Part shown: positions 16,322 to 43,251 of the stretch, piece by piece
Numbering within the stretch: the stretch's first letter is position 1
Layout of the letters: every line of letters begins with the position of its first letter
From: an uncultured Rhodospirillales bacterium
GTDB lineage: Bacteria; Pseudomonadota; Alphaproteobacteria; CACIAM-22H2
DNA length: 63,219 nt
NCBI GenBank assembly: GCA_903860935.1
Contig: CAIOSQ010000269.1
Coordinates: forward strand, 1 to 63,219
Direction: 5' to 3'
Position numbers and translations under genes: made by a program
Notes under the pieces: model-generated
What the model was told of the DNA's origin: nothing
What the model saw: the letters and a program-made list of their open reading frames with translations, nothing else
The model's database searches: none

Positions 16322-16404
16322 TCCTGCGCGTCGCGCATGGGCCCGAGCCTTGCCGGGCCGAGGATGGGCGCGGTAGCGTCATGAGGAACTCAAGGGAGGG
16401 GCTC

Positions 16405-18003: not shown

Positions 18004-18069
18004 GACATTGATGCCGCTCGCCGTCCGCCACCTGCGGGCGAACGGGTCGAGGACGGGACGAGGCGCGCC

Positions 18070-19837: not shown

Positions 19838-20646
19838 TGTCGCCTCTGCTCGAGGTTCGCGACCTCACCGCTCAATTCGCCCGCGACGGCGTTCCCGCCA
19901 CGGTCGTCAAGGGGATCTCGTTCGACATCGCTCCCGGAGAGTCCGTAGGCTTCGTCGGCGAATCGGGTTGCGGCAAGAGTGTCACCGCGCGCGCGATCAT
20001 GCGCCTGGCGCCCGAGGGGTCCTCGGTCGCCTGGGGCGGCCGGATCGGCTTTCGCGGACAGGATCTGCTCACGCTGTCCGAGCGTGAGATGCGCGATATC
20101 CGTGGCCGGCGGATCGCCATGGTGTTCCAGGATCCGATGGCCTCTCTGAACCCGGTCATGAGCGTCGGCGCCCAGATCGACGACATCCTGCGCCGCCACA
20201 CGGGGCTCTCGCGCAAGGCGGCACGTCAGCGCACGATCGAGCTTCTTGGACTGGTCGGCATCCGCGATCCAGCCATCCGGGCCGACGACTTCCCGCACCA
20301 ATTCTCAGGGGGAATGCGCCAGCGCGTGCTGATCGCGATCGCCGTGTCGTGCCAGCCCGATCTGCTTATCGCCGACGAGCCGACGACCGCGCTCGACGTC
20401 ACCGTCCAGGCGCAGATCCTGCGTCTGCTCAACCGGCTGCGACGGGAACTGGGCATGGCCCTGATGCTGATCACCCATGATTTCGGCGTGATCGCGGGCA
20501 TGGTCGAACGTGTGAACGTCATGCACGGCGGCGAGATCGTCGAGGCGGGGCCCATCGACCAACTCTTCGCCGCGCCGACGCATCCTTATACGCGCGCCTT
20601 GCTCGCAGCGGTGCCTCGCCTGGACGGCGCGAGGCCGGGCGGATGA
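19837..20646 (+). CDS. ABC transporter ATP-binding protein (DppD-like, short)
   Basis: The ATG at 19837 overlaps the upstream stop by 1 nt. [49 protein letters not shown]. Confidence 0.9.
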
Positions 20647-21617
20647 GCGCGCCGCCGCCCCTGCTCGAGGTACGCGACCTCGGCGTCACCTTCCCGGCGC
20701 GACGCGGTCGCCCCCCGGTGCGCGCCGTGGATGGCGTGTCGTTCGATATCGCTCCGGGACAGACCCTCGGGCTCGTGGGGGAGTCGGGATCGGGAAAGAC
20801 GACCACCGGCCGCGCAATCCTCCAGCTCCAGCCCGTGAGCGCGGGAACGGTCCGGCTGCTTGGCCGCGACCTTACCAGCCTCCCGGCCGCGGAACTTCGG
20901 GCGATGCGCCGGCACATGCAATTCGTCCTGCAGAACCCCTATTCGAGCCTCCATCCGCGGATGACGGTCGCGCAGATACTTGCGGAACCGCTGCGCATCC
21001 ACGCCACGGTCCCGCGCGCCGCGGTCGACGAACGCGTCGCTGAGCTGATGACGCTGGTCGGCCTCGATCCGGCGATGACCCGGCGCTATCCGCATGAATT
21101 CTCCGGAGGGCAGCGCCAGCGCATCGTCATCGCCCGAGCGCTCGCCGTGAACCCCGATTTCGTCGTCTGCGACGAACCGGTCTCGGCGCTCGACGTGCGT
21201 ACGCAAGCCCAGATCGTCGACCTCCTCCAGTCCCTGCAGGCGAAGCTGCGGCTCTCGCTGCTCTTCATCGCCCATGATCTCGCGGTCGTGCGCGCCGTCG
21301 CGCATCGCGTCGCCGTCATGTATGGCGGGCGGATCGTCGAACTCGGCGACGCGGCGCAGGTCTACGACACACCCGCGCATCCCTACACGCGCAACCTCCT
21401 CGATGCCGTCCCGGTGCCCGATCCAGCCCGCCAGCGCGCCCGCCTGGCGGAGGCAACGGTGGATCCGGATTTCCGGGGCCGCGAAGCGGACACGGGAGCC
21501 TGCGTGTTCGGGATCGATCACGCCGCGACCGGCACTGCGCCCTGGCACGAGATCGCGCCGGGCCATTTCGTGTCCTGCCGCTTCTGGCCGCGTGGCGTCA
21601 CGCCGGCCCGTGGATGA
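20643..21617 (+). CDS. ABC transporter ATP-binding protein (DppF-like)
   Basis: ATGA overlap. GESGSGKTTTGRAIL, FSGGQRQRIVIA, FVVCDEPVSALD, HPYTRNLL. Confidence 0.9.
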   Translation: MSAPPPLLEVRDLGVTFPARRGRPPVRAVDGVSFDIAPGQTLGLVGESGSGKTTTGRAILQLQPVSAGTVRLLGRDLTSLPAAELRAMRRHMQFVLQNPYSSLHPRMTVAQILAEPLRIHATVPRAAVDERVAELMTLVGLDPAMTRRYPHEFSGGQRQRIVIARALAVNPDFVVCDEPVSALDVRTQAQIVDLLQSLQAKLRLSLLFIAHDLAVVRAVAHRVAVMYGGRIVELGDAAQVYDTPAHPYTRNLLDAVPVPDPARQRARLAEATVDPDFRGREADTGACVFGIDHAATGTAPWHEIAPGHFVSCRFWPRGVTPARG

Positions 21618-21639
21618 CCGGCAACAACAGGAGAAGACA

Positions 21640-22047
21640 GTGCCGACGCTGCGCAAGACCATCGTTCCGGCGCGCATGACGCGCATCTTCGAGGAGTACG
21701 GCTACGCGCCGGCGCTCCAGGTCGGACGGACGCTCTATTGCGCCGGACAGGTCGGACGCACCGAGGATCTGCGCGTCATCGAGGATCCCGAGGCGCAGTT
21801 CGAAGCCTGCTGGGAGAATCTGCGGATCGTCCTCGCCGAAGCCGGCTGCGATTTCCGCGATGTCGTCGACCTGACGACATTTCATGTCGAGATGCAGGCG
21901 CATTTCGATGCCTTCAAACGCGTCAAGAACCGCGTATTCCCGCGCCAGACATGCCCCTGGACGGCCATCGGCGTCCAGGCGCTGTCACGGCCGGGGCTCC
22001 TGCTCGAAATCAAATGCACCGCCCTGGTGCCGGAGGATGCACCGTGA
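21640..22047 (+). CDS. RidA/YjgF family enamine/imine deaminase-like protein
   Basis: GTG at 21640 after CAGGAGAAG. LYCAGQVGR ... DVVDLTTFHV ... PWTAIGVQALSRPGLLLEIK. The start could instead be the ATG about 36 nt downstream. Confidence 0.75.
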   Translation: MPTLRKTIVPARMTRIFEEYGYAPALQVGRTLYCAGQVGRTEDLRVIEDPEAQFEACWENLRIVLAEAGCDFRDVVDLTTFHVEMQAHFDAFKRVKNRVFPRQTCPWTAIGVQALSRPGLLLEIKCTALVPEDAP

Positions 22048-22847
22048 GCTATCTCGCCATAGAAGATCGTGGCCCCATCGCGATCGTCAGGCTCGACCGT
22101 GCGCAGAGCCGCAACGCGATCTCGAGCTTCGAGGACTGCGCCGAACTCGTCGACTGCCTCGTCCGACTCGACGCCGATCGCGCCAAGCGCGTCATCATCC
22201 TCACCGGTGCCGATCCGGCTTTCTGCGCAGGCGGAGATCTGAAACAGATGCGCGCCGGCACGGGCCTCGGTGGCGGTCGTACCGCGCTCGAGGTCCAGGA
22301 CAATTATCGGCGCGGCGTGCAACGGATCCCGCTCGCCTTCCAGAGCCTCGACATTCCGGTGATCGCGGCGGTGAATGGGCCGGCCGTCGGCGTCGGATGC
22401 GATCTCGCGGCGATGTGCGATCTCCGCATCGCTTCGGAACGGGCGACCTTCGCGGAAAGCTTCGTCAAGGTCGGGCTCGTACCCGGCGACGGTGGCGCAT
22501 GGTTCCTCGCGCGCGCGATCGGCGTCGCTGCCGCGGCGCGCCTTGCGTTGACCGGCGAGACGATCGGCGCCGAACGCGCGCGCGCAATCGGGCTGGTCTC
22601 GGATGTCGTACCGCATGACGATCTGATCCCCGCGGCCGTCGCGCTCGCATCGACCATCGCCGCCAACCCGCCGGCCGCCGTCCGCCGCACCAAACGCCTG
22701 CTCCGCGAGGCCCTCGCGCTACCCCTGCCCGCGTTCCTGGACCTCACGAGTGGCATGCAGGCGGCCTTGCATCATGGTGACGACCACAAGGAGGCCGTCG
22801 CCGCGATCCTCGAGAAGCGCGCGCCGGTCTTCACCGGATCCGACTGA
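22044..22847 (+). CDS. enoyl-CoA hydratase/isomerase family protein
   Basis: The GTG at 22044 overlaps the RidA stop (GTGA). VRLDRAQSRNAIS ... LTGADPAFCAGGDL ... AAVNGPAVGVGCDLA. Confidence 0.85.
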   Translation: MSYLAIEDRGPIAIVRLDRAQSRNAISSFEDCAELVDCLVRLDADRAKRVIILTGADPAFCAGGDLKQMRAGTGLGGGRTALEVQDNYRRGVQRIPLAFQSLDIPVIAAVNGPAVGVGCDLAAMCDLRIASERATFAESFVKVGLVPGDGGAWFLARAIGVAAAARLALTGETIGAERARAIGLVSDVVPHDDLIPAAVALASTIAANPPAAVRRTKRLLREALALPLPAFLDLTSGMQAALHHGDDHKEAVAAILEKRAPVFTGSD

Positions 22848-22860: not shown

Positions 22861-24042
22861 TCAGGCCCCGGCGAAGGCGAGCGACAACAATTCGACGACC
22901 TCCGCCTCGCTGCGGATCCGGCGCGGATTGTTGAGGACGTAATGGCTCTGCATCGACGCCGCCGCGATCTGCCCGACATGGGCGCGCGCGACGCCGATCT
23001 CCTCCATCGTCGTCGGGAGCCCAAGCTCCGCGACGAAATCGCGGACCGCTTGCCAGGCCGGTACGCCGGGCCGCCCCATCAGCGAACTGACGAGGTCCTG
23101 GGCCTCGGGGCAATGCGCGGCATTGAACCGCAATGTCGCCGGAAGCATCACGCAGGACGTCTCTCCGTGCGGAACACCGAGTGCGCCGCCCAGCATATGC
23201 CCGACACCGTGGCTCGCGCCCATCGGCACGAAGGCCATGTTGTGATCCGCCGACAGCCACGCCGCCATCATGCACCGGTGACGTGCCTCGAGATCCGACG
23301 GATCGTCGCGGGTACGCGGAAGATTGGCGACCAACAACCGGACGGCATGGATCGCCGGCCCCATCGAGTAGTCGTCGACCTTGGGCGAACAAATCGTCTC
23401 GACGGCGTGGTCGAGTGCGCGGATACCCGTCGAAAGCCAGAGCCGCTGGGGCGTGTGGCGGGTCACCGCAGCGTCCAGCACCACCACCTGGGCCGCCAGA
23501 CCGGGATGCGTGTAGATGTCCTTCACGCCGCGCCGGGTATCCGTGCATCCGAGGATCGGGTTGAACTCGCCGGCCGACAGGGTCGTCGCGACCGCGATCT
23601 GGGGCATGCGCGGCGCCGCGTAGTCCGGCAGGTGTCGCGTGCCGTCGGGACGCGCCACCGTCCGGTAGGCGTCGAGTTGATCGGGCGACGTCACGTCATG
23701 CTCGATGCAAAGGCGCAGGAGTTGCCCGGCATCCATCACGGTGCCACCGCCGACGGTGAGCACGAGATCCGCGCCCACGGCCCGCGCGCGCGCCGCCGCC
23801 TCGACGACGCCGTCGCGCGGCGTATGCGCCGGCATCGTGTCGAAGCTGTCTGCGTATCGCGCACCGAGAGCGTTACGCAGGTCGCGGACGACGTCGCTCG
23901 ACCTGTCCAGTGTCCGGCTGACGATCATGAACACACGCCGGGCGCCGAGACGCTCGACCTCGCCGGGAACCATGGCGACCGAGCCGGGGCCGAAATGGAC
24001 CCGCTCGATACGGTGATAGGTCCGATATCCGTTGAGCCGCAT
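22861..24042 (-). CDS. iron-containing alcohol dehydrogenase family (maleylacetate-reductase-like)
   Basis: ADLVLTVGGGTVMDAG ... GASHGVGHMLGG..GVPHGETSC metal-binding His cluster. The ATG at 24042 overlaps the thiolase stop by 1 nt. Confidence 0.8.
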   Translation of the reverse strand: MRLNGYRTYHRIERVHFGPGSVAMVPGEVERLGARRVFMIVSRTLDRSSDVVRDLRNALGARYADSFDTMPAHTPRDGVVEAAARARAVGADLVLTVGGGTVMDAGQLLRLCIEHDVTSPDQLDAYRTVARPDGTRHLPDYAAPRMPQIAVATTLSAGEFNPILGCTDTRRGVKDIYTHPGLAAQVVVLDAAVTRHTPQRLWLSTGIRALDHAVETICSPKVDDYSMGPAIHAVRLLVANLPRTRDDPSDLEARHRCMMAAWLSADHNMAFVPMGASHGVGHMLGGALGVPHGETSCVMLPATLRFNAAHCPEAQDLVSSLMGRPGVPAWQAVRDFVAELGLPTTMEEIGVARAHVGQIAAASMQSHYVLNNPRRIRSEAEVVELLSLAFAGA

Positions 24043-25223
24043 CACACGATCTCGAAAAGTCCCGCGGCGCCCATTCCGCCACCGACGCACATGGTGACGA
24101 CGACACGGCGGGCGCCACGCCGCGCCCCCTCTATCAGCGCATGCATCGCAAGACGCGCTCCACTGACACCGAAGGGATGCCCCATCGCGATCGATCCGCC
24201 ATTCACGTTCAAACGCTCCATAGGGATCCCGAGCCGGTCACGACAATGGACGACCTGGACCGCGAATGCCTCGTTGAGTTCCCAGAGATCGATGTCCTCG
24301 ATCCGCAGACCATGCCGCGCGAGCAGCTTCGGCACGGCGAAGACCGGACCGATCCCCATTTCGTCCGGATCGCATCCGGCCACCGCAAAGCCCCGGAAAA
24401 TCCCAAGCGGCCGCAGACCGCGTCGCACCGCCAGATCGGCATCCATCACGACGACGGCGGCCGCACCATCGGAGAGCTGGCTCGCATTCCCGGCCGTGAT
24501 CGTCCCGTCCACTCCGCGAACGGGCGCCAGGCGCGACAGACCTTCGGCGGTCGTGTCGGCCCGGTTGCACTCGTCCCGCCCGAAGCGCGCCGCGGCGACG
24601 GTCTCGGCGCCGGTCGCGCGATCCTTGACCCGCATCTCGACGTCGATCGGCGCGATCTCGGCGTCGAAGCGGCCATCGGCCTGCGCCGCCGCCATCCGCC
24701 GCTGGCTCTCCAGCGCGTAGGCGTCCTGCGTGGCGCGATCTATCGCGTAACGCCGCGCGACGATCTCGGCCGTGTCGATCATCGGCATCCACAGCGCCGG
24801 GTGATGGGCACGCAGCCATGCCTCGTCGTCATGCGCGGTGTTGAGATGCTCCGCGACGAGGCTCACGGACTCGACGCCGCCCGCGACCAGTGCCGACACG
24901 CCGTCACACATGACGCGATGCGCGGCCATCACGATCGCCTGCAATCCCGAACTGCAGAAGCGATTGATCGTCGCACCGCCGACCGACAACGGCAGGCCGG
25001 CACGCACGGCGCTCATGCGGGCGATATTGTTTCCGGTCGCGCCCTCTGGCCAGGCGCAGCCGAGCAGCACATCGTCGATCTCACCCGGATCGACGCCGGA
25101 TCGCGCGATCGCCGCCGCGATCGCATGCCCGGCCATGGTCGCCCCATGGGTCATGTTGAGGCTGCCGCGCGCCGCCTTTCCGATCGGCGTGCGCGCCACA
25201 CCGACGATCGCCGCGTCCGTCAT
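24042..25223 (-). CDS. acetyl-CoA C-acyltransferase (thiolase, FadA-like)
   Basis: [11 protein letters not shown] ... [12 protein letters not shown] (active-site Cys) ... [20 protein letters not shown] ... CVGGGMG. Confidence 0.92.
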
Positions 25224-27361
25224 GAACCGATCCATCCCTTGCGCTCGAGTTGCGCGAAACCCACACCCTCGCGCGCCATGCGGGCCAGGAGCGGCGCAGG
25301 CTCGAGCCAAGCCTCGCCGCGCGCCGCCCAGTCGCGCAGGACATCATGGACATGCCCGACACCGACGTCGTCCGCCCACTTCAGGGGACCGCCCCGCCAG
25401 CGCGGGAATCCGAAACCATGGACGTAGATCACGTCGATGTCGCCAGGGCGTGCGGCCAATCCCGCCTCGAGAATGCGCGCCGCTTCGTTGACGAGCGCGA
25501 ACAGGCAGCGATCGAGGATCTCCTGCTCCGCGATCGCGCGCGGCTTGATGCCGATACGGATCCGTTCGGCGGCAACGACCGCATCGGTCTCCGGAGACGG
25601 CAGAGCCTTGCGACCACCCGGTTCGTAACGAAACCAGCCCTGCCCCGTCTTCTGACCGAACCATCCGCGCTCGCACAGAAGATCGGCAAGCCTGCTCTGG
25701 CGACGATCGGCCCTGCGCATGGCCGGCACTTCCTTGCGCAGCCACCAGGCGACGTCCAGCCCCGCCATGTCCGCCATCGCGAAGGGCCCCATCGGCATTC
25801 CGAACCCGACCAGCGCGCGGTCGACCGCGTCGGGCGTGGCGCCTTCCTCGACCAGAAACTCCCCCTGGCGCTGGTACTCGAAGATCATCCGGTTGGCGAC
25901 GAAGCCGAAGGCATTGCCGACGATCACGCCGGTCTTGCCGATGCGTCGCGCGAACTCCGCCGCGGCACGCAACGTCGCGGCGCCGGTGCCCGGCGCGCGT
26001 ATGATCTCGAGCAACCGCATGACGTTCGCGGGACTGAAGAAATGCAGGCCGAGCACCCTGTCGGGCCTGCACGTGGCACGCGCGATCGCGTCGACGTCCA
26101 GCGTCGACGTGTTGGTGGCGAGAATCGTATCCGGACCGACGACCGCATCGAGCGCGGCGAAGATCTCCAATTTCACCGGCAGACTCTCGAAGGCGGCTTC
26201 GATGACGAGGTCGGACGACGCGAGCCCCGCGATCGTATCGACGAAGACGATGCGCGACATGACAGCCTGCGCCGCATCGGGGTTCATGCGCCCACGTTCC
26301 GTCTGGCCCTTGAAGTGATCCGCGATCGCAACATGCGCGGCGTCACGACGCCCGGTGTCGCTCTCGAACACCTGCACCGGGACACCTGCCCCCGCGATCG
26401 CGAGGGCGATGCCGCGCCCCATCGTGCCCGCGCCGACGACACCGACCGTGCCGATGGAAAGCCCCTGCGTGGTCGCATCGCCATCCGGCAACCGTGTCGC
26501 GGCCCGCTCGGCGAAGAACATGTGCATCAACGCGCGTCCCTCGCCGGACACCCGACAGGCATCGAAGTTCGCCCGCTCCTGCACCAGAGCGTCCGCCAGC
26601 GATCCATCCAGACCGCGCTCCACCGCGTCGATCGCGGCACGGCGCGCACCGGACCAGGGCCAGCGCTCGCGTACGCTCTGCCGCGCCTGCGCAATGGCGG
26701 CCGCGACTTGCGCCTGCTGCACTTCGGTCAACGCGCGCGTGCCGACGCGGCGCTCGGCGAGCGTCGTCTTGTCGATCGTCGCCGCGAGGCGCTCGCAGAC
26801 CGGCTCATGTCCATCGACCGCGACCGCGTCGATCAGGCCGATATCGAAGGCCTTCGCGGCAGCAATCGGCGCGGCGTCGAGAATCATGCGCAAAGCCGCC
26901 TCTGCACCCACCACGCGCGGCAGACGCCGTGTTCCGCCGGCTCCGGGGATCAGGCCCAGGGTCACCTCGGGCAAGCCGAGACGGGTATCCGGGGTCGCGA
27001 TCCGGAAATGGCAAGCCAAGGCAAGTTCGAGACCGCCCCCGAGCGCATTGCCATGCATGCAGGCGATCACCGGCTTCTCGGACCCCTCGATCGTGGCCAG
27101 CACGTCGTTCATGTCCGGAGGTTGCAGCGGGGCGTCGAATTCCGAAATGTCGCCCCCGGCGACGAAATTGCGCCCATCGCCACGGATCGCGACCAGGGAG
27201 ACGTCCGGGTCCGCGATCGCCGCCTCGACGCACGCCGCGAGCCCGGCCCGCACGGCCTGAGACAGGGCGTTGACCGGCGGGTTGGCGATCGTCACCCAGG
27301 CAATGGCGCCGCGCCTCTCGAGGCGGACCGTGCCTTCACTCCCTGCCTTGGACTTGCCCAT
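25220..27361 (-). CDS. bifunctional enoyl-CoA hydratase / 3-hydroxyacyl-CoA dehydrogenase (FadB/FadJ/FadN-like)
   Basis: N-terminal crotonase ([36 protein letters not shown]) plus a C-terminal NAD Rossmann fold ([16 protein letters not shown]) and HADH domains. 713 aa. Confidence 0.92.
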
Positions 27362-27371
27362 GCCTCGACTC

Positions 27372-28544
27372 CTAATAGCCGCGTGGCATGCCAAGATCGT
27401 GGACGGCGATGAAGTTGAGGATCATCTCCTCGGAGACCGGCGCGAATAGGAAGAGCCGCGCATCGCGCCAGAGCCGTTCGATATGGAATTCCTTCGCGTA
27501 GCCCATGCCACCATGGGTCTGCATCGCACGCTCGATCGCCTCGTTCGCGGCCCGCGCGGCCACGACCTTGGCCATGTTCGACTCGCTCCCGTAGGCAAGG
27601 CCCTGATCGCATTTCCATGCGGCCTTCAGGTTCAGCGTCGACGCGGCCTCGATCTCCGCCGACGCCCGCGCGAGCGGAAACTGGAGCCCCTGGTAGGCGG
27701 CGATCGGCTTGTCGCCGAATACCTTGCGCGTCGCGCCATATTCGGCGGCAAGGCGCACGGCAAGGCGCGCGGCACCGACGAGCCCGGCGGTCGTCACGAT
27801 CCGCTCGGTGTTCAGCACATGCAGCAGCTCGTTCCACCCGCCATGGAGGGTGCCCACCAGTTCATGCGGTTCGATGCGGACCCCGTCGAAGAACACGGTG
27901 CTGGACGACAGCGTGTTGGTGCCCACCTTCTCGATCGGGGTGTAGGTCAGACCGGCGCGGTCGACGTCGATGAAGAACATGCTGATCCCATCGGTCCGGC
28001 GCGTGGATTCGGAGACAGTCTTTGTCCGCGCGACCACCAGCATCTTCTCGGCGTCGGGAACGGCGGTGATCCATATCTTGCGGCCGTCGAGACGCCATCC
28101 GTCCCCATCGCGCGACGCGAAACTACGCATCTCGAGCGTGTTGCTGCCGGCATCGGGCTCCGTCAACGCCATGCAGCAATTCATCTCGCCGGACACGATC
28201 CTGGGCAGGTAGCGCTCGCGCATCGCGTCGGGCGCGAAGCGCGACAAGGCGACGCCACCGAAGATCGGATTGATCATGAAGACCTGCGCGAGGGTGGCGC
28301 CGGCCCCGCCCTCGGTCAGGGCCTCGATCACCAAGGCAAGATCCAGCATGCCGAGTCCAGCGCCGCCATGATGCTCGGGCAGCGCGACACCGCACAGCCC
28401 GGCGCGGCAGATCGCCTTCCAGGCTTCCGCGGGGAAGCGCCGGTCACGGTCGAGATCGCGCCAGTACTCGAGCCCGTACTCGCGTCCGATCTGTCGCGCG
28501 GTGTCGAGCATCAGGCGCTGGTGCTCGGCGAGTGCGAATTCCAT
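27372..28544 (-). CDS. acyl-CoA dehydrogenase family protein
   Basis: CMALTEPDAGSN ... GRKIWIT ... QFPLARASAEIEAA ... THGGMGYAKEFHIERLWRDARL. The canonical C-terminal YEG Glu position reads FAPVS. Confidence 0.88.
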   Translation of the reverse strand: MEFALAEHQRLMLDTARQIGREYGLEYWRDLDRDRRFPAEAWKAICRAGLCGVALPEHHGGAGLGMLDLALVIEALTEGGAGATLAQVFMINPIFGGVALSRFAPDAMRERYLPRIVSGEMNCCMALTEPDAGSNTLEMRSFASRDGDGWRLDGRKIWITAVPDAEKMLVVARTKTVSESTRRTDGISMFFIDVDRAGLTYTPIEKVGTNTLSSSTVFFDGVRIEPHELVGTLHGGWNELLHVLNTERIVTTAGLVGAARLAVRLAAEYGATRKVFGDKPIAAYQGLQFPLARASAEIEAASTLNLKAAWKCDQGLAYGSESNMAKVVAARAANEAIERAMQTHGGMGYAKEFHIERLWRDARLFLFAPVSEEMILNFIAVHDLGMPRGY

Positions 28545-28549
28545 TGCGT

Positions 28550-29746
28550 TCAGCCTTCCATGGGCGGTGTCGTGAGCAGATCAGTGGGTCGGGACAGCGC
28601 TTTGCGGATCCGATTGAGCAGTGCGAGACCGGATACGCCATCGAATATCCGGTGATCGCAGGACAGGACCAGTCCCATTTCGCGTGCGACGACCGGCTGC
28701 CCCTGCGCGTCGGGACGGAACGTCGCGCGCACCGATCCGGTGCCGAGTATCGCCGACTGGCCCGGCGGAATGATCGAGGTCATCCACGTGACGTCGTGCA
28801 TGCCCGCATTCGACAGCGTCATCATCGGTTCGCCGTCGAGATCGTCGGGTCGAAGGGCACCGGCGCGGGCGCGTCCCGTCAGCGCGGCAAGCCGCGACGC
28901 GATGGTGTGAAGATCCAGGGCGTCCAACCCCTTGAGGACGGGCGCTACCAGCCCGGCCGGCGTATCGATCGCTACCCCCAGATCGATCCGCACGAGCCGG
29001 GCTGGCCCCCCCGACCTCCATACACGCATCGCCGCCCTGTCCGCCGCGAGGGCACGCACGATCGCGGCGACGAGGAAACAGGAGAGCGATATGCCGCGCC
29101 CCTCCTGCTTGAGGCACCCACGCAACGACTCGAGCGCCGAAACCTCGACCTCGCTCGCGAGGTAGAAATGCGGGATATCGCGCTTGGCGACGACCATCCG
29201 CGCCGCCGCGATCCGCTCCGCGTCGGCACTCGGCCCATCTGCATCGCGGCGCGCATGTTCGCCTCGTGCGATCGCCGCCTCGACATCGACGGCCTTTATC
29301 CGGCCGCCAGGCCCGGAGCCGGGCAGGCCGTCGAGACGGATGCCGGCCTGACGCGCAAGGCGGCGCGCGAGCGGCGTCGCGACGACGCGTGGTTCGCCCC
29401 CCACGGCGGGGGCGCGGATCGCATCGGACGGTCCCGGCGCATCGAGAGGCAGCGTTGCGCGCCGTGAATCCGGAACTGCGGGCACAGGAGGCTCCGCACC
29501 ATCATCCGCTTCGAACTCGGCGATGGCGGCGCCGACATCGACCAGGTCACCCGGCCGCGCGACATGGCGCAGCAGACGCCCCGCAAGCGGCGCCTCGACC
29601 TCGCTCGCGATCTTGTCGGTCTCGACGACCACGATGGTCTGGCCGGCAACGAAGCGCTCGCCCTCGGCGATCGTCCATGCGGAGACGACCCCGCTCTCCA
29701 TCGTGAGGCCGAGTTTCGGCATGCGCAGGGTCTGCGCCGCCCCCAT
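28550..29746 (-). CDS. dihydrolipoamide acyltransferase (E2) of a 2-oxoacid dehydrogenase complex
   Basis: Lipoyl domain MPKLGLTMESG ... VVVETDKIASEVEAP, PSBD ATPLARRLARQAGIRL, and catalytic SCDHRIFDGVSG. The ATG at 29746 overlaps the upstream stop by 1 nt (a GTG at 29749 is also possible). Confidence 0.9.
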   Translation of the reverse strand: MGAAQTLRMPKLGLTMESGVVSAWTIAEGERFVAGQTIVVVETDKIASEVEAPLAGRLLRHVARPGDLVDVGAAIAEFEADDGAEPPVPAVPDSRRATLPLDAPGPSDAIRAPAVGGEPRVVATPLARRLARQAGIRLDGLPGSGPGGRIKAVDVEAAIARGEHARRDADGPSADAERIAAARMVVAKRDIPHFYLASEVEVSALESLRGCLKQEGRGISLSCFLVAAIVRALAADRAAMRVWRSGGPARLVRIDLGVAIDTPAGLVAPVLKGLDALDLHTIASRLAALTGRARAGALRPDDLDGEPMMTLSNAGMHDVTWMTSIIPPGQSAILGTGSVRATFRPDAQGQPVVAREMGLVLSCDHRIFDGVSGLALLNRIRKALSRPTDLLTTPPMEG

Positions 29747-30531
29747 CACGCGCCCCGGAATTCAGGGCTGCGCTTCTCGAGGAACGCGCTGCATCCTTCA
29801 TGGGCATCGGCGCTGTCGAGCACGAGCCCGATCATGGCCTTTTCGTGCGCGAGCGCGGCGGACATCGGCATGTCGGCCCCGTCGCCCAGCGTGCGCTTGA
29901 GAAGCTTGAGGACCAGCGGCGAGCGCGACGCGATCTTCGCGGCAAGCGCCGCCGTCTCGGTCGCGAGCGTTTCGCGCGGCACGACGCGGTTGACCAATCC
30001 GATCGCCAGGGCCTCCTGCGCGTCGATCTGTTCGCCGACGAACATCAGCTCCTTCGCGCGGCAGAGCGGCACCTGCCGGATAAGCCGCTGGCTACCGCCG
30101 GCGCCAGGAAAGAGCCCGAGCGTGATCTCGGGAAGGCCCAACCGCGCCTGCGATGCGACGATGCGGATATCGCAGCACAAGATCAGTTCGGTGCCACCGC
30201 CAAGCGCCCATCCGTTGACGGCGGCGATCGTCGGCTTGTCGCAGGTCTCGACGCGGCGGAAGACCCTGTGGATCACCTCCGCGAACTCCTGGTAATGCGC
30301 AAGACCGCGCCGCGAGTCGAGGTCACGGATGTCGCCGCCGGCGATGAACGCGCGTTCGCCTGCGCCGGTGATCACGATCACCCGTACCGCGGGATCGGCC
30401 TCGACCTCGTTCCACGCCGCCTCCAGCGCCAGGAGTGTCGGAATGTCGAGCGCGTTGAGAACCTTCGGACGGTTGATCGTCAGGGTCGCGACGGCGCCAT
30501 CGCGCGCGATCAGGATCGTGGGCTCGCTCAT
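29746..30531 (-). CDS. enoyl-CoA hydratase/isomerase family protein, encoded between E1beta and E2
   Basis: ATG at 30531 inside ORF 29746..31374. LTINRPKVLNAL ... ITGAGERAFIAGGDI ... AAVNGWALGGGTELIL. Confidence 0.88.
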   Translation of the reverse strand: MSEPTILIARDGAVATLTINRPKVLNALDIPTLLALEAAWNEVEADPAVRVIVITGAGERAFIAGGDIRDLDSRRGLAHYQEFAEVIHRVFRRVETCDKPTIAAVNGWALGGGTELILCCDIRIVASQARLGLPEITLGLFPGAGGSQRLIRQVPLCRAKELMFVGEQIDAQEALAIGLVNRVVPRETLATETAALAAKIASRSPLVLKLLKRTLGDGADMPMSAALAHEKAMIGLVLDSADAHEGCSAFLEKRSPEFRGA

Positions 30532-30535
30532 CGCG

Positions 30536-31510
30536 CTACTCCATGAGGCGGCGACATGCCGCGACGATACGGTCCGCCCCGGGCCGGTAGGCCATCTCGA
30601 GGGATTTCGCGAAGGGAACGGGCATGAAGGGCGCTCCGACGCGCAGGATCGGCGCATCGAGATCGTCGAAGGCGACCTCCACCATCCGGGCCGCGATCTC
30701 GGCACCGACGCCGAAGGCCTCCACGGCCTCGTGCGCAACGACCAGGCGATGCGTCCGGGCGACAGATTCGCGAAGCAACGCCTCGTCCCAGGGCTGAACG
30801 CTGCGGAGGTCGACGACCTCGCAGGACATGCCCTCGGCGGCGAGACGATCGGCGGCCACCAGAGCCTCGCGAAGAAGCGCACCATAGGTCGCGATGGTCG
30901 CGTCCCGACCGGCGCGGGCGATGCGGCCCTGCCCGATCGGAACACGCACCAGCGTCTCATCGACGGTTTCCGACAGCGCGTAGAGCCCCTTGTGCTCGAC
31001 GACCACGACGGGATCGGGATCATCGATCGCGCTGCGCAGCAGGCCGTAGGCGTCCGCGGCGGTCGCCGGCACCACCACCTTGAGGCCGGGAACATGTGCG
31101 AGCCACGCCTCGAGGCATTGGGAGTGCTGCGGCCCGGCGTTGAGGCCGCCACCATGCGGCATCCGCAGCACGAGCGGCACGCCCCCGCGCCCGCCGAACA
31201 TGAAACGCGCCTTCGCCGCCTGGTTGACGATCTGATCCATCGCCAGCGTGACGAAATCCATGAACATGATCTCGACGACCGGCTTGAGCCCGCAAAGGGC
31301 GGCTCCGACCGCCGCACCCACGATCGCGGACTCGGAAATCGGGGCATCGAGCACACGCTGTGGGCCGAAGGCATCGAGAAGGCCGCGCGTCACGCCGAAG
31401 GGACCACCGGCTGCGGCGACATCCTCGCCGAACAGGACGACAGCGGGGTCGTCGCGCATCGCATCCGCGAGCGCCTGATTGATCGCCTTGGCGAAGCGCA
31501 GCTCAGCCAT
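30536..31510 (-). CDS. 2-oxoacid (acetoin/pyruvate/BCKA-type) dehydrogenase E1 beta subunit
   Basis: ATG at 31510. MAELRFAKAINQALADAMRDDPAVVLFGEDV ... DAPISESAIVGAAVGAAL ... VVEHKGLY. Confidence 0.9.
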   Translation of the reverse strand: MAELRFAKAINQALADAMRDDPAVVLFGEDVAAAGGPFGVTRGLLDAFGPQRVLDAPISESAIVGAAVGAALCGLKPVVEIMFMDFVTLAMDQIVNQAAKARFMFGGRGGVPLVLRMPHGGGLNAGPQHSQCLEAWLAHVPGLKVVVPATAADAYGLLRSAIDDPDPVVVVEHKGLYALSETVDETLVRVPIGQGRIARAGRDATIATYGALLREALVAADRLAAEGMSCEVVDLRSVQPWDEALLRESVARTHRLVVAHEAVEAFGVGAEIAARMVEVAFDDLDAPILRVGAPFMPVPFAKSLEMAYRPGADRIVAACRRLME

Positions 31511-32543
31511 AGACGTCGCCCCGCGCGAGATCGAAATCGGGATCCGGGGCGAGGCGTGCCGCCTCGACAGCCGCGTCGATCTCGGCCGTGATCTCGGCCT
31601 CGATCGTATCGAACCGCGCGCGCGCGTCGCGATCCTCGTCGACGCATAGCCGCGCGGCGAGCCGCATGATCGGATCGGCTGCCGCTGCGGCGGCACGCTC
31701 CGGCGCATCCCGGTAGCGCTGCGGGTCGCCCTCGAAATGCCCCGCCACGCGGTGGGTGGCGCAGGACACGAGACGGGGACGACGATCCTCGCGGCACGCC
31801 GCGACCAGCGGACCGACCGCTGCATGCACGGCAAGCACGTCGTCGCCATCGAGGGCCAGAAACGGCAAGCCGAATGCCTCGGCGAGTTTGGCACCGTCGC
31901 CCGCGAAGGCGCGGTCGGACGGCGAGAACTCCGACCATCCGTTGCGCTCGCACACCATGACGAGTGGCACCTGCCAGAGGGCCGCGAGGTTCATCGTCTC
32001 GTAGACCGCGCCCTCGGCCATCGCACCGTCGCCGAAGAATGCGACCGCCACGGCGCGCCGTCCCGACACCTTGTGGGCCAGCGCGCTGCCGAGCGCGATC
32101 GGGGCGCCGGCACCGACGATCCCGTTGGCGCCCAGCATGCCGCGCGCGAGATCGGCGACATGCATCGATCCGCCGCGTCCGCGACACGCGCCGCTGTCGC
32201 GGCCCATCACCTCGGCGACGAGCGCGGACACCGGAACGCCCTTCGCGAGGCAGTGCCCATGGCCACGATGCGTCGACGCCACGGTGTCGGCATCCGTGAG
32301 GCAGGCACCGAACGCGGCGGCGATCGCTTCCTGCCCGATGCTGAGATGGATGAACCCTGGCACCTCGCCATCGGCGAAGAGCCGCGCGAGCCTCTCCTCG
32401 ACGCGACGGATCCGGATCATCGAGCGCATCAGCGCCCAGGCGGTCTCTGACACCGTGGACCGCTCACCGCTGTTCCCGGGATATGCGTCGACACCATTCA
32501 CGTCGAAAACCTTATCTCGCGCGGGGACCGTGCAAAAGGACAA
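31503..32543 (-). CDS. 2-oxoacid dehydrogenase E1 alpha subunit (TPP-binding)
   Basis: HRGHGHCLAKG ... GGSMH ... FFGDGAMAEGAVYETMNLAALWQVPLVMVCERNGW (GDG..N TPP motif). The start is uncertain: 32543 is TTG, and in-frame GTGs at 32501 and about 32450 are alternatives. There is an 8-nt overlap with E1beta. Confidence 0.85.
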   Translation of the reverse strand: MSFCTVPARDKVFDVNGVDAYPGNSGERSTVSETAWALMRSMIRIRRVEERLARLFADGEVPGFIHLSIGQEAIAAAFGACLTDADTVASTHRGHGHCLAKGVPVSALVAEVMGRDSGACRGRGGSMHVADLARGMLGANGIVGAGAPIALGSALAHKVSGRRAVAVAFFGDGAMAEGAVYETMNLAALWQVPLVMVCERNGWSEFSPSDRAFAGDGAKLAEAFGLPFLALDGDDVLAVHAAVGPLVAACREDRRPRLVSCATHRVAGHFEGDPQRYRDAPERAAAAAADPIMRLAARLCVDEDRDARARFDTIEAEITAEIDAAVEAARLAPDPDFDLARGDVYG

Positions 32544-32544
32544 A

Positions 32545-32577
32545 TGAACAATGACCCAGCGCTCATATTTTTCATAT
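32545..32577. promoter_or_regulatory. AT-rich divergent control region elements: motif copy TGGGTCATTGTTCA (reverse strand, 32545-32558) and a TCATAT-TTT-TCATAT repeat (32563-32577)
   Basis: Lies in the 77-nt gap between the E1alpha ORF start and the ATG at 32621. It is unusually AT-rich for this DNA. Confidence 0.3.
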
Positions 32578-32620
32578 GCTCGCGGCGGTGCGCGCGCGTC
32601 GCGCGCGAGGAGGCTTTGCG

Positions 32621-33379
32621 ATGCTCAAACTCGCCGAACTGGCGATGCTCGGCCGTCCCGTCCGCCAGGACGACTGGGACGAGTTGGGTATCGCCACCCC
32701 GGAACGGATCATCGACGCCATCGACGGCGGTCGCCTGGACGAGGCCAAGGCTCTGGCGCGCTACATGATCGACGAGGGCAAGGCGCTCCACGATCTCATG
32801 TGCGACTGGGTCTGGGATCTGCTGACCCGGATCGCCGAGCGCTTCGGCGAGGACGCGATGTACGAGTGCCTTCGCGACAGCCAGTCCGGCTGGATGCTCC
32901 GCCGGACCTGGAAGGGCTTCCTGAAAATGCCGGTGGCGCAGCGCGTCCAGATCACGGCCGAGATCATGCGCAGCCATCGTTGCGGTCCAGGCCAGGATGG
33001 CGGGATCGATGTGATCGAGGAACCCGATCGCTTCACGATCCGCATGGATCCCTGCGGCAGCGGCGGACGCATGCGACGCGGCGACCCGGTGGACGGAACG
33101 CCGTCGCGCCTGGGACCGCCCTATCGGTTCGGATCGACCCGCGCGGCCCATGATTGGAGTTGGGGACAGAGCGGCGTTCCCTATTACTGTCTGCATTGCG
33201 CGGTGAACGAAATGCTGCCGATGGAATGGGGCGGACATCCGCTCTGGGTCACCGGCTACGACCCCGATCCGGCCAAGCCTTGCCACTGGCATTTCTACAA
33301 AACCGCCGATGCGATCCCTGAGGAGGCCTACACGCGCCTCGGCCGACGCAAGCCGCCGCCCGGTGAAGGCCTTTACTGA
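32621..33379 (+). CDS. hypothetical Cys/His/Trp-rich 252-aa protein (possible metal-binding accessory subunit)
   Basis: ATG at 32621 with GAGGAGG 8 nt upstream. High GC3 and a globular composition. Candidate ligand set C145 (MDPCGSGG), C190/C193 (YYCLHC), C221/H222/H224 (PCHWH). No family name can be assigned from memory. Confidence 0.7.
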   Translation: MLKLAELAMLGRPVRQDDWDELGIATPERIIDAIDGGRLDEAKALARYMIDEGKALHDLMCDWVWDLLTRIAERFGEDAMYECLRDSQSGWMLRRTWKGFLKMPVAQRVQITAEIMRSHRCGPGQDGGIDVIEEPDRFTIRMDPCGSGGRMRRGDPVDGTPSRLGPPYRFGSTRAAHDWSWGQSGVPYYCLHCAVNEMLPMEWGGHPLWVTGYDPDPAKPCHWHFYKTADAIPEEAYTRLGRRKPPPGEGLY

Positions 33380-33395: not shown

Positions 33396-35126
33396 TCAGG
33401 CGGCACGCATCGATCGACGCAGCGCCGCCGTCGCCTCCGCATCGATCGCAAGCGGCGCTCCGGCGAGGACCACTCCGTAATCGCGGCGCGCCCCCTCGAC
33501 CGACACGAAGCGCGCACGCACGTCGCGCAGCACGGCCTCTGGATCGCGTTCGAGCGGATCGCCGTATCCGCCTGCTCCCGCAGTCTGCCAACTCACGACA
33601 TCGTTTTCCGCGAGACGGTAATTGCCCTTCGAATGAACCTCGCGACCGCCTTGCGTCGGCGACACGATCAGCGTCCGTCCGAGCGCGCCCGGGCGCCCAC
33701 CGGCGAGACCATAGGGCTGGAACAGGTGCCGATCGCCGAGATTGTAGAAGTTTCCATCCGGCGCCAGCATCCGCATGTCCTTGCGCATGCCCGATCCGCC
33801 GCGCCATTTCCCGGCCCCGGCGCTGTCGGGGATCAGTTCGACCCGCTCGACCAGGATCGGACATTTCATCTCCTGCATCTCGGCCGGCATGTTGGTGCCG
33901 TTCCAGGGCGATGCGAGCGCCTCCGCGCCATCCGCTCCGTGGCGCGCGCCGACGCCGCCGATGATCGTCTCCCAGACGATCGAGATCCGTCCGGTCTGCG
34001 CATCCTGAAACCCGATATTCGGGTTGAAGAAATGCGAATTGGCGGCGATCACCTTGTCCGGCGCCGCCTGCGCGAGCGCGCCCATGATCACTTCGTAGAT
34101 CCGGTGCGACACGGTCGCGCGCCCGCCGCACGGCGCGGGACGACGCGGATTGAAGAAGCAACCCTCGGGCGCGATGGTCCGGATCATGCGCATCGTTCCG
34201 GCGTTCTGCGGCAGCAGCGGCAGCGTCACGCTCTTTACCGCCGCGAGGGCATAGGCGTTCGTGTACGACAGGTAGGAATTCAATCCCGCCTCGCGCTGCG
34301 GGCCGCTGCCTGTCCAGTCCACGGTCACGCCGTCTTCGCCGATCGTCACCGCGACCTTGGCCAGGACCGGCGCCGTCCCGGGTCCGACATCGTCGAGTTG
34401 ATCCTCGAAGCGATACGTACCGGGCTTGAGCCGGCCGATCGCCTCGCGCATCTGCACCTCGCTCCGGTCGATCAGGTCGCGCATCGCCTGGCGAAGGACT
34501 GGTATCCCGTAGGTCCGGGCGAGGGCCTGCATCCGCGCGCCGCCAGCCTGGTTCGCGATGTACTGCGCGCGCATGTCGCCGATCACCTCGGGCATGCGCA
34601 CATTGGCCTCGATGATGCGGAATATCTCTTCGTTCGGCTCGCCTGCGCGATAGAGCATCGTCGGCAGGAACCGGATGCCCTCCTGATAATTGTCGAGGAT
34701 TCCGTCGACCACCTGCGAGCCCGCGCCCGAGCCTCCGATGTCGATCTGGTGCGCGATGTTCACCGCGAAGCCGATCAGCGTTTCGTCGAGGAAAACCGGA
34801 CACACCATGTACATGTCCGGCAGATGCCCGCTGCCGATGCCCGGATCGTTCGAGATCATCGCGTCGCCCGGGCGCAACGTGTGCGCCGGATAATAGGCGA
34901 GCATTTTCCCGACCGTGTAGGCCATCGATCCAAGATGGCCGGGGCTGTAATCGCCCTGGCTGACCATGTTGCCGTCGGCGTCGAACATCCCGGTGGAAAA
35001 GTCGGTGCCCTCGCGCACGGCGCTCGAATACGCGGTGCGCTGCAACGTGGCCCCCATCTCCGCCGAGGCGGACACGAGGCCGCCCCAGATGACAGAGAAC
35101 GTGACCGGATCGACGTGTGCGCTCAT
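33396..35126 (-). CDS. hydantoinase B / oxoprolinase family protein (HyuB-like)
   Basis: DPVTFSVIWGGLVSASAEMG..L.RTAYS..VREG.DFS ... SNDP..G.GHLPD, the typical HyuB N-terminus. 576 aa, GGAG SD. Confidence 0.9.
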   Translation of the reverse strand: MSAHVDPVTFSVIWGGLVSASAEMGATLQRTAYSSAVREGTDFSTGMFDADGNMVSQGDYSPGHLGSMAYTVGKMLAYYPAHTLRPGDAMISNDPGIGSGHLPDMYMVCPVFLDETLIGFAVNIAHQIDIGGSGAGSQVVDGILDNYQEGIRFLPTMLYRAGEPNEEIFRIIEANVRMPEVIGDMRAQYIANQAGGARMQALARTYGIPVLRQAMRDLIDRSEVQMREAIGRLKPGTYRFEDQLDDVGPGTAPVLAKVAVTIGEDGVTVDWTGSGPQREAGLNSYLSYTNAYALAAVKSVTLPLLPQNAGTMRMIRTIAPEGCFFNPRRPAPCGGRATVSHRIYEVIMGALAQAAPDKVIAANSHFFNPNIGFQDAQTGRISIVWETIIGGVGARHGADGAEALASPWNGTNMPAEMQEMKCPILVERVELIPDSAGAGKWRGGSGMRKDMRMLAPDGNFYNLGDRHLFQPYGLAGGRPGALGRTLIVSPTQGGREVHSKGNYRLAENDVVSWQTAGAGGYGDPLERDPEAVLRDVRARFVSVEGARRDYGVVLAGAPLAIDAEATAALRRSMRAA

Positions 35127-35141
35127 CTTTGCGTCTCCGCC

Positions 35142-37229: not shown

Positions 37230-37311
37230 GGCCGCTCCCCTGCACCGCCCGCAACGCCGAACGCACGGCGAGACTGGCAGAGCGCACCGGCGATCGCAAG
37301 AACATGACGAG

Positions 37312-37368
37312 TGGTTCACGGTTCATATTCTTCCGTCGCCGAACCTATGATGATTGACTCACGATTCA
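37312..37368. promoter_or_regulatory. two copies of a 14-nt tandem-heptad motif in the hyuA / TRAP divergent region
   Basis: TGGTTCACGGTTCA (37312-37325) and TGACTCACGATTCA (37355-37368), 11/14 identical to each other. They sit in a locally AT-richer 199-nt intergenic region. Confidence 0.35.
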
Positions 37369-37428
37369 CATCGCAGTCACACTCGTGCCGTTTCCGCGTC
37401 TGCCCGACAGGAGAGCGACAGGCATCCC

Positions 37429-37917: not shown

Positions 37918-37924
37918 ACCCGCC

Positions 37925-39220: not shown

Positions 39221-39285
39221 GCGCTGGACACACCGCCGATTTCACGCCGAAAACACCAACCGGACACCCAAGGAGGACATCCGAC

Positions 39286-40269: not shown

Positions 40270-40284
40270 TCGCCGTATCCGTCG

Positions 40285-43247: not shown

Positions 43248-43251
43248 GGGA

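Follow-up and report, generated by a model that had tools for sequence, protein, structure and literature searches.

The window considered here is the whole 63,219-nucleotide stretch of contig CAIOSQ010000269.1 (assembly GCA_903860935.1), from an uncultured Rhodospirillales bacterium. On its minus strand, eight genes form an operon in which the E1 and E2 components of a 2-oxo acid dehydrogenase-type complex are joined to a full set of beta-oxidation enzymes and to an Fe-dependent alcohol dehydrogenase family protein (Fe-ADH). The core of this operon, E1alpha-E1beta-crotonase-E2-acyl-CoA dehydrogenase (ACAD), recurs as a module in other bacteria, and a distinct E1 clade is locked in this conserved order with crotonase and ACAD in dozens of species. 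We lean towards a general scheme in which E1 and E2, with E3 (dihydrolipoamide dehydrogenase) acting in trans, generate an acyl-coenzyme A (acyl-CoA) from a 2-oxo compound, after which the product passes through one turn of beta-oxidation. In this scheme we infer the reaction order, the supply of E3 in trans and the class of substrate. Judged from the sequences, the parts belong to known families, and what appears to be new is the integration of an E1/E2/E3-type complex with beta-oxidation enzymes.

Operon architecture

What is described below on gene content, motifs, operon structure and conservation was observed directly. The first gene encodes E1alpha, the subunit that binds thiamine pyrophosphate (TPP; 31503..32501, Pfam E1_dh, 8e-68), and is followed by E1beta (30536..31510; Transket_pyr and Transketolase_C). 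A monofunctional crotonase, i.e., an enoyl-CoA hydratase (ECH; 29746..30531; ECH_1, 4e-67), is placed between E1beta and the E2 acyltransferase (28550..29746), in which Biotin_lipoyl, E3_binding and 2-oxoacid_dh mark the lipoyl, E3-binding and catalytic domains. Then come ACAD (27372..28544; Acyl-CoA_dh_N/M/1), a FadB/FadJ-like bifunctional enoyl-CoA hydratase/3-hydroxyacyl-CoA dehydrogenase (25220..27361; ECH_1, 3HCDH_N and 3HCDH), a thiolase (24042..25223; Thiolase_N/C) and Fe-ADH (22861..24042; Fe-ADH and ADH_Fe_C). The FadB-like protein and the thiolase are lineage-specific additions (see below). An earlier reading of the DNA, made from the sequence only, had proposed these eight minus-strand genes in this order, and Pfam matched every architecture. 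Placement of the start codons gives the junctions as that reading described them: an 8-nt overlap (E1alpha and E1beta), a 4-nt gap, a 1-nt overlap, a 5-nt gap, a 10-nt gap, a 4-nt overlap (FadB and thiolase) and a 1-nt overlap. Their geometry is identical in the gene calls of the related contigs L001, L003 and L004. Hence, the junctions, and their retention in relatives, support the view of a single co-directional and translationally coupled unit.

The extent of the unit needs one correction. It holds eight genes, but its proposed upstream limit, 32543, is the TTG of the longest open reading frame (ORF), and E1alpha probably starts at the GTG at 32501. This start yields 332 amino acids, as called in L001, it is preceded by a conserved "GATAAGG", and both start and ribosome-binding site are conserved in L001, L003 and L008.

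A simple signal scan detected no sigma-70-like sites inside the block, and terminator-like sites (6, relative to 4.3 +/- 2.3 expected) are not in excess; internal signals are therefore not indicated. The G+C content of the window is ~0.65-0.73 and its composition shows no break over 22-33 kb. No riboswitch or other RNA element was found around the operon in Rfam at E <= 0.1.

Distribution and conservation of the module

An E2 profile scan covering one genome per GTDB species yielded 80 loci, to which the window proteins were mapped by tblastn. The gene maps of related loci combine tblastn with a simple ORF caller, so single absences may be miscalls and the counts are approximate. E1beta, crotonase and E2 are adjacent in 56 of the 80 loci, and the full order E1alpha-E1beta-crotonase-E2-(E3/PrpD-like)-ACAD is present in 52. 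Among Alphaproteobacteria the core is found in Azospirillum, Sneathiella, Bosea, Roseomonas, Rubritepida, Novosphingobium and Phenylobacterium, and among Betaproteobacteria in Achromobacter, Advenella, Paraburkholderia xenovorans LB400 (chromosome 3), Variovorax, Collimonas and Paucimonas; the same core order is seen in Bordetella hinzii (L007). Elsewhere it occurs in Marinobacter (Gammaproteobacteria) and in one Terriglobia metagenome-assembled genome (MAG). The median identity to the window proteins is 55% for E1alpha, 67% for E1beta, 70% for crotonase (placed alike in 56 loci), 42.5% for E2 and 65% for ACAD.

Several further genes accompany the core. An AMP-binding acyl-CoA ligase, which reaches the uncharacterized NCBIfam equivalog PRK06145 "acyl-CoA synthetase", continues it in 46 of the 56 loci, while E3 lies within the operon in 11 and a MmgE/PrpD-family protein is encoded in 19. 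The latter has no NCBIfam PrpD match and hence is not a true PrpD. Clustering ORFs de novo adds a short-chain dehydrogenase/reductase (SDR; 32 loci), often embedded in the operon of a LivK-type ATP-binding cassette (ABC) transporter, a TetR regulator (28 loci), an IclR regulator, Fe-ADH (12 loci) and an SCPx-type thiolase together with DUF35 (12 loci). Family III CoA-transferases accompany the core in several loci (L013, L027, L038, L048, L051 and L069), and genes for electron transfer flavoprotein (ETF) or ETF-QO adjoin the module in Shinella and in an Azospirillum MAG. A propionyl-CoA/acrylate route linked to methylcitrate was considered and down-weighted, since the MmgE/PrpD-like protein has no PrpD match and a C3 unit would give FadB and thiolase nothing to do.

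In only one of the 56 core-bearing loci, that of the window's own lineage, is the core followed by FadB and a conventional thiolase, with Fe-ADH after them. With its eight genes, the window lineage has thus elaborated on a module of five to six genes that is itself widespread. The unit proposed from the sequence is thus real, but what is conserved is E1alpha-E1beta-ECH-E2-ACAD, usually with an acyl-CoA ligase, and the eight-gene form is confined to an uncultured Acetobacteraceae-like lineage. Close relatives of the window E2 were found in metagenomes only (99, 86 and 78% identity), followed at <= 50% by proteins of Azospirillum, Sneathiella and Bordetella. One relative with 86% identity, L008, is a MAG contig of an uncultured Acetobacteraceae bacterium. 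A JGI metagenome contig (L101, Ga0315906_10023682) with the order ECH-E1beta-E1alpha-orphan-HyuB-HyuA matches the window at 100% identity over 6.8 kb and thereby hints at the environment from which the organism comes. In the close relatives, the entire neighborhood is retained, i.e., a TRAP (tripartite ATP-independent periplasmic) transporter, HyuA-HyuB, the divergent orphan gene, the eight genes and a convergent importer operon.

About 15 loci of a Desulfobacteria type carry a parallel version, with the order E1alpha-E1beta-(Zn-ADH)-SDR-ECH-E2-E3-PimC-like ACAD-PimD-like ACAD-(CaiC-like ligase)-Cys-rich protein.

Could an E1/E2 unit have come to lie beside unrelated beta-oxidation genes by accident, with no pathway in common? 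ECH, ACAD and thiolase belong to large and promiscuous families, and the set of FadB, thiolase and Fe-ADH has joined the core in one lineage only. Against this, all seven junctions overlap or nearly abut and are kept in relatives with 78-86% E2 identity, the order E1-ECH-E2-ACAD holds in three proteobacterial classes with ECH and ACAD at 65-70% identity, and, as noted above, terminator-like sites are not in excess. We regard such an accident as very improbable. The arrangement is not due to chance: four to five related contigs keep the whole block, and the core is kept in 52 of the 80 species-level loci.

Neither NCBIfam equivalogs, annotation nor the open-access literature offered a pathway for this gene order. 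For the plasmid-borne copies of Azospirillum Az39 (p3) and Shinella HZN7 (pShin-09), the product names given by the NCBI annotation pipeline, PGAP, are generic only. The earlier remark that the composition was not recognized as a described pathway is in keeping with these searches, in which a curated family, annotation or paper assigning the gene order was not found.

Placement of the E1/E2 complex

The E2 lipoyl motif "ETDKIAS", its catalytic motif "DHRIFDG" and the E1alpha motif "GDG...N", all named in the sequence-only reading, are present in the translations, and E2 residues K45, H365 and D369 are invariant or nearly so (alignment A1). None of the eight window proteins reached an NCBIfam equivalog cut-off, the similarity being at the family level throughout. 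Over all components scanned, including those of relatives, the only models passed were PRK06145 for the ligase, whose name is uninformative, and two subfamily models. E1alpha scored 292 bits against TIGR03182 (PDH_E1_alph_y; cut-off 394) and E2 201 bits against TIGR01349 (E2 of pyruvate dehydrogenase, PDH; cut-off 445), while E1beta, with 350 bits, exceeded the cut-off of 321 for the subfamily model NF006667 "PDH E1 beta". The AcoC model NF011457 covers only residues 4-163 of E2, i.e., the lipoyl/linker part. In phmmer searches of PDB sequences, E1alpha matched mitochondrial-type PDH E1alpha best (176 bits), ahead of a Thermus 2-oxo acid dehydrogenase (102 bits) and branched-chain 2-oxo acid dehydrogenase (BCKDH; 82-92 bits); for E2, PDH E2 was best (152 bits) and BCKDH E2 gave 53-69 bits.

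Acetoin dehydrogenase operons on annotated plasmids served as references: Mycetohabitans acoXABC with a sigma-54 regulator, Paracoccus with butanediol dehydrogenase, Klebsiella of the acoABCD type and Acinetobacter with acetoin reductase. The window E1alpha is 51, 50, 48 and 44% identical to AcoA of these operons, respectively, and 39-42% identical to proteins that PGAP names pdhA. In a neighbor-joining tree (100 bootstraps), all module E1alpha proteins fall into one group, and a split with support of 100 parts this group from PdhA, from the Firmicutes/Atribacterota types and from AcoA (own support 100). As the tree is unrooted and built from distances, we claim no sister relationship. The earlier description of the complex as "acetoin-type" holds in so far as AcoA is the nearest reference by identity and the proteins fall in the PDH/acetoin branch; it does not hold for the E1alpha clade, which the phylogenetic comparison with AcoA and PdhA shows to be separate, or for E2, which is not of the AcoC type. 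Judged by sequence similarity, E1 and E2 are in the PDH/acetoin branch and outside the BCKDH branch.

A tblastn search with B. hinzii E3 revealed no homologue in the 63-kb window, in agreement with the first reading. That reading's treatment of the missing E3 as a special feature cannot be maintained, since the window E2 keeps its E3-binding domain, 11 related loci have E3 in the operon and an E2-E3 fusion is found in Desulfobacteraceae. The fusion (L090:2236-4872 and L091:2236-4872) is a single polypeptide of 878 residues, in which a complete dihydrolipoamide dehydrogenase is joined to the lipoyl, E3-binding and E2 catalytic domains; the related locus L142 encodes E2 and E3 by separate genes. 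Together these features argue for a genuine E1E2E3 system. It is common that one lpd gene serves several complexes, and the absence of E3 from the operon is not distinguishing.

The beta-oxidation enzymes and Fe-ADH

The full beta-oxidation set that had been proposed (ACAD, hydratase, NAD-dependent 3-hydroxyacyl-CoA dehydrogenase and thiolase) is borne out by Pfam and by the catalytic motifs. Both crotonase folds retain the two catalytic Glu residues, in "GGGTEL" and "LPEITLG" of the crotonase and in "GGGLEL" and "LPEVTLG" of FadB, and the Cys/His/Cys motifs of the thiolase are read in its translation as "NRFCSSG", "GHPFG" and "MCVGGG". The top PDB matches of the crotonase are 3-hydroxypropionyl-CoA dehydratase and short-chain ECH. 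Against NCBIfam, the FadB-like protein gave 415-422 bits with FadJ/FadB (cut-off ~870, not reached), and the thiolase was slightly under the cut-off of 615 for PRK07108 (599 bits).

The nearest NCBIfam models for ACAD, all under the cut-off, are acryloyl-CoA reductase, PRK12341 and a non-decarboxylating glutaryl-CoA dehydrogenase. At the position of Glu376 in medium-chain acyl-CoA dehydrogenase (MCAD), the window ACAD has Pro ("FAPVSEEM"), and a Glu is instead present at the position used by isovaleryl-CoA and long-chain acyl-CoA dehydrogenases ("LNTERIV"). This combination suggests that the pocket suits substrates with branching or bulk at C3. An idea centered on glutaryl-CoA and 2-oxoadipate, raised by the weak likeness of ACAD and by the oxoprolinase-like HyuAB neighbors, was down-weighted for the same residue: glutaryl-CoA dehydrogenases have their catalytic base at the position equivalent to MCAD Glu376, where the window ACAD lacks a Glu.

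For Fe-ADH, the best full-length NCBIfam match is 4-hydroxybutyrate dehydrogenase (141 bits, < 500 cut-off), and MAR1 and maleylacetate reductases in the PDB align with its C-terminal half (residues ~138-393; 120-153 bits). Homologues of 42-43% identity stand beside the core in Azospirillum, Paucimonas and Alcaligenaceae.

Substrate clues from associated transporters

Carboxylate-type uptake systems are found beside the module, a TRAP transporter in the window and in Sneathiella and a LivK-type transporter elsewhere. The most concrete clue is the LivK-type binding protein of the Azospirillum module, which is 67% identical to PDB 4Q6W (TM-score 0.89/0.95); such a protein is encoded also on a module-bearing B. 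petrii contig and in a Desulfobacteria MAG. The identity of the module's binding protein (L015:5531-6751) is 62-85% from Azospirillum to Halomonas, Ralstonia and the Desulfobacteria MAG, with 4Q6W and 4MPT as the PDB representatives. The entry title of 4Q6W describes a Periplasmic Binding Protein type 1 from Bordetella pertussis Tohama I with "3-Hydroxy Be...", i.e., 3-hydroxybenzoic acid; we found no publication on this structure and its ligand, which are apparently unpublished. The bound 3-hydroxybenzoate suggests that import probably concerns a carboxylate and not an amino acid. Candidates are a ring carboxylate, or an acid that bears an oxygen function at the position gamma to its carboxyl group. 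The TRAP system of the window also fits a carboxylate substrate. The SDR gene mentioned above usually interrupts the LivK-type transporter genes, with the permease genes on one side of it and the ATPase genes on the other.

Proposed reaction scheme

In the scheme that we favor, E1, of the heterotetramer type (alpha/beta, TPP), would act with the lipoylated E2 in the oxidative C-C cleavage of a carboxylate-type 2-oxo compound, recruiting the cell's common E3 via the E3-binding domain of E2. The acyl group would leave as acyl-CoA and then undergo one co-transcribed turn of beta-oxidation, involving ACAD (with electrons passed to ETF), the crotonase, the dehydrogenase half of FadB and the thiolase. 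Fe-ADH might act on an alcohol, aldehyde or enone group, either of the substrate or of a product. In most other bacteria, the core would be completed by the acyl-CoA ligase, the SDR and sometimes the SCPx-type thiolase, where the ligase would give the free acid a second way in and the SDR would serve as hydroxyacyl-CoA dehydrogenase; in the window lineage, FadB, thiolase and the Cys-rich protein would take their place. A 2-oxo acid is somewhat more likely as substrate than an alpha-hydroxyketone (acyloin).

E2 is the sole enzyme of the operon able to make a new CoA thioester, as the operon encodes neither ligase nor CoA-transferase, and the simplest reading is therefore, as in the first reading, entry through E1/E2 followed by the beta-oxidation turn. 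Moreover, the SDR (32 loci) and SCPx-thiolase/DUF35 (12 loci) found elsewhere, set against FadB and thiolase here, suggest that hydroxyacyl-CoA dehydrogenase and thiolytic steps follow ECH.

Several points weigh against this scheme. If entry is through E2, the ligase that 46 of the 56 loci encode would be superfluous, and the CoA ester could instead be formed first with E1 acting later. E1alpha is, by sequence, nearest to AcoA, which cleaves acetoin, and not to a 2-oxo acid enzyme of known specificity. The MmgE/PrpD-like protein, Fe-ADH and the Cys-rich protein have no assigned step, and of the monofunctional crotonase and the hydratase domain of FadB, both present, one is left unexplained. 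The ligand in 4Q6W may derive from a screening library. The open-access text that was searched held no biochemical or genetic work on any member of the module.

In the main rival scheme, which we consider improbable, the order is reversed, and a gamma-oxo or gamma-hydroxy acid (levulinate type) or a C3-oxygenated ring carboxylate would first be made into a CoA ester. ACAD and the embedded crotonase would then build a 3-hydroxy-4-oxoacyl-CoA, i.e., an acyloin, which the AcoA-like E1/E2/E3 would cleave into an acyl-CoA and 3-oxopropionyl-CoA. This would amount to acetoin-type chemistry on a CoA ester, and it would account for the crotonase between E1beta and E2 in 56 loci as well as for AcoA as the closest relative of E1alpha. 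The core is almost always accompanied by a ligase or a family III CoA-transferase, although the window operon has neither to form the first CoA ester. The 3-hydroxybenzoate bound by the binding-protein orthologue has an oxygen on the carbon gamma to the carboxyl, and Fe-ADH resembles 4-hydroxybutyrate dehydrogenase and reductases of maleylacetate, a 4-oxo-2-enoate. In addition, the Desulfobacteria-type versions put Zn-ADH and SDR between E1beta and ECH, as in acetoin/butanediol operons. However, FadB, thiolase, SDR and SCPx-thiolase better match an ordinary turn of beta-oxidation, and an enzyme for the 3-oxopropionyl-CoA product is absent. To our knowledge, no E1 accepts a CoA ester as substrate, and the route is put together wholly by inference.

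Comparison with known systems

One close parallel is acetoin dehydrogenase (AcoA/B/C/L, encoded by acoXABC or acoABCL), which has the same chemistry of a heterotetramer-type TPP E1, a lipoylated E2 and an NAD-linked E3. The Zn-ADH and SDR genes of acetoin/butanediol operons also appear in the Desulfobacteria-type relatives of the module. The window differs in that its E2 is a canonical acyltransferase and its E1alpha belongs to a separate clade (split bootstrap 100). Compared with the aco loci L094, L095, L096 and L100, it lacks AcoX, the sigma-54 regulator AcoR and butanediol dehydrogenase/acetoin reductase, while the embedded crotonase, ACAD and the further beta-oxidation genes are not needed for acetoin catabolism.

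The bkd systems, together with the subsequent steps of isoleucine and valine breakdown, follow the same logic: oxidative decarboxylation gives an acyl-CoA, which is then processed by ACAD, hydratase, hydroxyacyl-CoA dehydrogenase and thiolase. Like the wider module with its ligase, some bkd operons carry genes for activation of the free acid, e.g., ptb/buk in Bacillus and Enterococcus. Isoleucine catabolism employs BCKDH, ACAD, enoyl-CoA hydratase, hydroxyacyl-CoA dehydrogenase and thiolase. The contention that canonical operons lack a beta-oxidation cycle of their own was, hence, too strong for BCKDH-type systems, since isoleucine catabolism consists of BCKDH and one beta-oxidation turn.

This likeness raises the question of whether the operon encodes a branched-chain 2-oxo acid dehydrogenase with isoleucine/valine-type steps, i.e., a known pathway in an unusual gene order. 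The catalytic Glu of ACAD is at the isovaleryl-CoA dehydrogenase-type position, many copies of the module are flanked by LivK-family transporters, and a RidA gene and a peptide-type ABC importer adjoin the window operon. The complex itself points elsewhere: against solved structures, E1alpha gives 82-92 bits with BCKDH E1alpha compared with 176 for PDH E1alpha, E2 is nearest to PDH E2 with weak BCKDH matches, and no component reaches an NCBIfam equivalog. The order also differs from that of bkd operons, as ECH lies inside the E1/E2 block, and the transporter orthologue was crystallized with an aromatic acid and not with Leu, Ile or Val. Moreover, the module is often plasmid-borne or accessory, and its MmgE/PrpD-like and Fe-ADH partners fit nowhere in the pathway. 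Taken together, we consider a branched-chain route quite unlikely, though less so than an accidental juxtaposition.

PDH of the alphaproteobacterial/mitochondrial type (PdhA/B/C) provides the best solved-structure matches for the window E1alpha and E2. In contrast to PDH, the window E1beta has no lipoyl-domain extension, and the operon partners are catabolic enzymes acting on CoA esters.

With respect to its other half, the wider module resembles CoA-dependent systems that process bulky or alicyclic acids in the manner of beta-oxidation, namely ali/bad and pim of R. palustris and the Bbs pathway of anaerobic toluene degradation. Common to them are the ligase, ACAD, the crotonase and a dehydrogenase of the SDR type, to which 12 loci add an SCPx-type thiolase and its DUF35 partner. 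Module ACAD, ligase and SDR show weak NCBIfam similarity to cyclohexanecarboxylate enzymes, at the family level and below curated cut-offs, and the Desulfobacteria-type modules have a two-subunit ACAD of the PimC/PimD kind. We know of no ali/bad, pim or Bbs pathway with an E1/E2/E3 complex.

Significance of the module

Dedicated E1/E2/E3 complexes are few, and each is a major entry to central metabolism: those for pyruvate, 2-oxoglutarate, branched-chain 2-oxo acids and acetoin. The carriers of the module include well-studied genera (Azospirillum, Bordetella, Achromobacter, Paraburkholderia with P. xenovorans LB400, Variovorax and Marinobacter), with the parallel version in anaerobic Desulfobacteria. 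Knowledge of the substrate would close a gap that genome annotation meets again and again, could reveal a new route for 2-oxo acids or a new use of acetoin-type C-C cleavage, and would also give a function to a highly conserved family of orphan Cys-rich proteins. As culturable, genetically tractable hosts and a binding-protein crystal structure with ligand exist, the module is directly testable.

A bolder proposal, which we think improbable, is that E1alpha-E1beta-crotonase-E2-ACAD represents a further functional E1/E2/E3 class beside those acting on pyruvate, branched-chain 2-oxo acids and acetoin, in which the crotonase makes an acyloin-CoA, such as 3-hydroxy-4-oxoacyl-CoA, as substrate for E1 and the Cys-rich, Bet3/V4R-like protein is a new accessory subunit. 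The block comes with a ligase or the Cys-rich protein, and it is spread from Proteobacteria to sulfate-reducing Desulfobacteria. If this proposal were true, thiamine/lipoamide chemistry would replace thiolysis in an oxygen-independent route, which would serve gamma-oxo or gamma-hydroxy acids or C3-oxygenated ring carboxylates.

The conserved Cys-rich protein and the divergent intergenic region

Divergent from E1alpha, a conserved Cys-rich protein is encoded on the plus strand (32621..33379; 252 amino acids from M16 of a 267-residue ORF). It had no sequence matches in Pfam, NCBIfam or the PDB. The family is 64-81% identical across Alpha-, Beta- and Deltaproteobacteria, and its invariant residues are Cys76, Cys160 (DPCGSGGRMRRGDP), Cys205, Cys208 and Cys236. 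Its genomic context was read in 49 loci, each 5 kb or longer, that came from look-ups and from a scan of metagenomes. The gene is the last one of the proteobacterial modules that lack the PRK06145 ligase (L022, L121 and L139) and of the ~15 Desulfobacteria-type E1/E2-ECH-ACAD modules; it was seen in L022, L090-L093, L121, L139 and L132-L170, and in other contexts it sits after AMP-binding ligases. We treat the protein as a presumably genuine, recurrent accessory of the E1/E2 system. Its AlphaFold model (pLDDT 76) shows weak matches to Bet3/V4R/H-NOX-like folds (best E 0.097, TM-score 0.36/0.53), from which, being too weak, we claim no function.

The Cys-rich gene and E1alpha are separated by 119 bp (32502..32620). 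Alignment of this region with L001, L003 and L008 shows a conserved AT-rich core (CATATGAAAAATATG, then TGGGTCATTGTTCATTTG), in a genome of 68% G+C, and a short inverted repeat. These features, lying in a region common to both genes, suggest co-regulation, and the region may act as an operator/promoter shared by E1alpha and the Cys-rich gene.

Neighboring genes

Directly upstream of the operon and on the same strand are HyuB and HyuA, of the hydantoinase/oxoprolinase family (33396-37319, minus strand). Divergent from them, the TRAP transporter genes DctQ, DctM and DctP (37354-40269, plus strand) are followed by a TetR gene (40217-41035). Only the window lineage keeps this HyuAB-TRAP-TetR block together with the operon, and HyuAB is also found beside ECH-less E1/E2 genes in L058 and L071. 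Since the link between HyuAB and the core is restricted to the window lineage, HyuAB was left out of the scheme. A role of HyuAB as acetone or acetophenone carboxylase was considered and rejected: HyuB is nearer to the caprolactamase beta subunit (273 bits, cut-off 1000) than to ApcD (83 bits).

On the other side, a convergent importer operon (16252-22847, plus strand) encodes an SBP_bac_5 protein, two permeases, two oligo_HPY ATPases, a RidA-family protein and a second crotonase. It converges on the stop codon of Fe-ADH, with 13 nt between the gene ends. The related contigs L001, L003 and L008 share the importer end nearest to Fe-ADH (permease, both ATPases, RidA and second crotonase), and these loci stop before the binding protein. 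The importer and RidA may deliver a nitrogen-containing precursor, the imine of which would be hydrolyzed to a 2-oxo acid. Finally, ~10 kb upstream of the operon and beyond the TetR gene, a second acyl-CoA dehydrogenase and a family III CoA-transferase are encoded (42093-44562, minus strand); the latter could supply the CoA activation that is missing from the operon.

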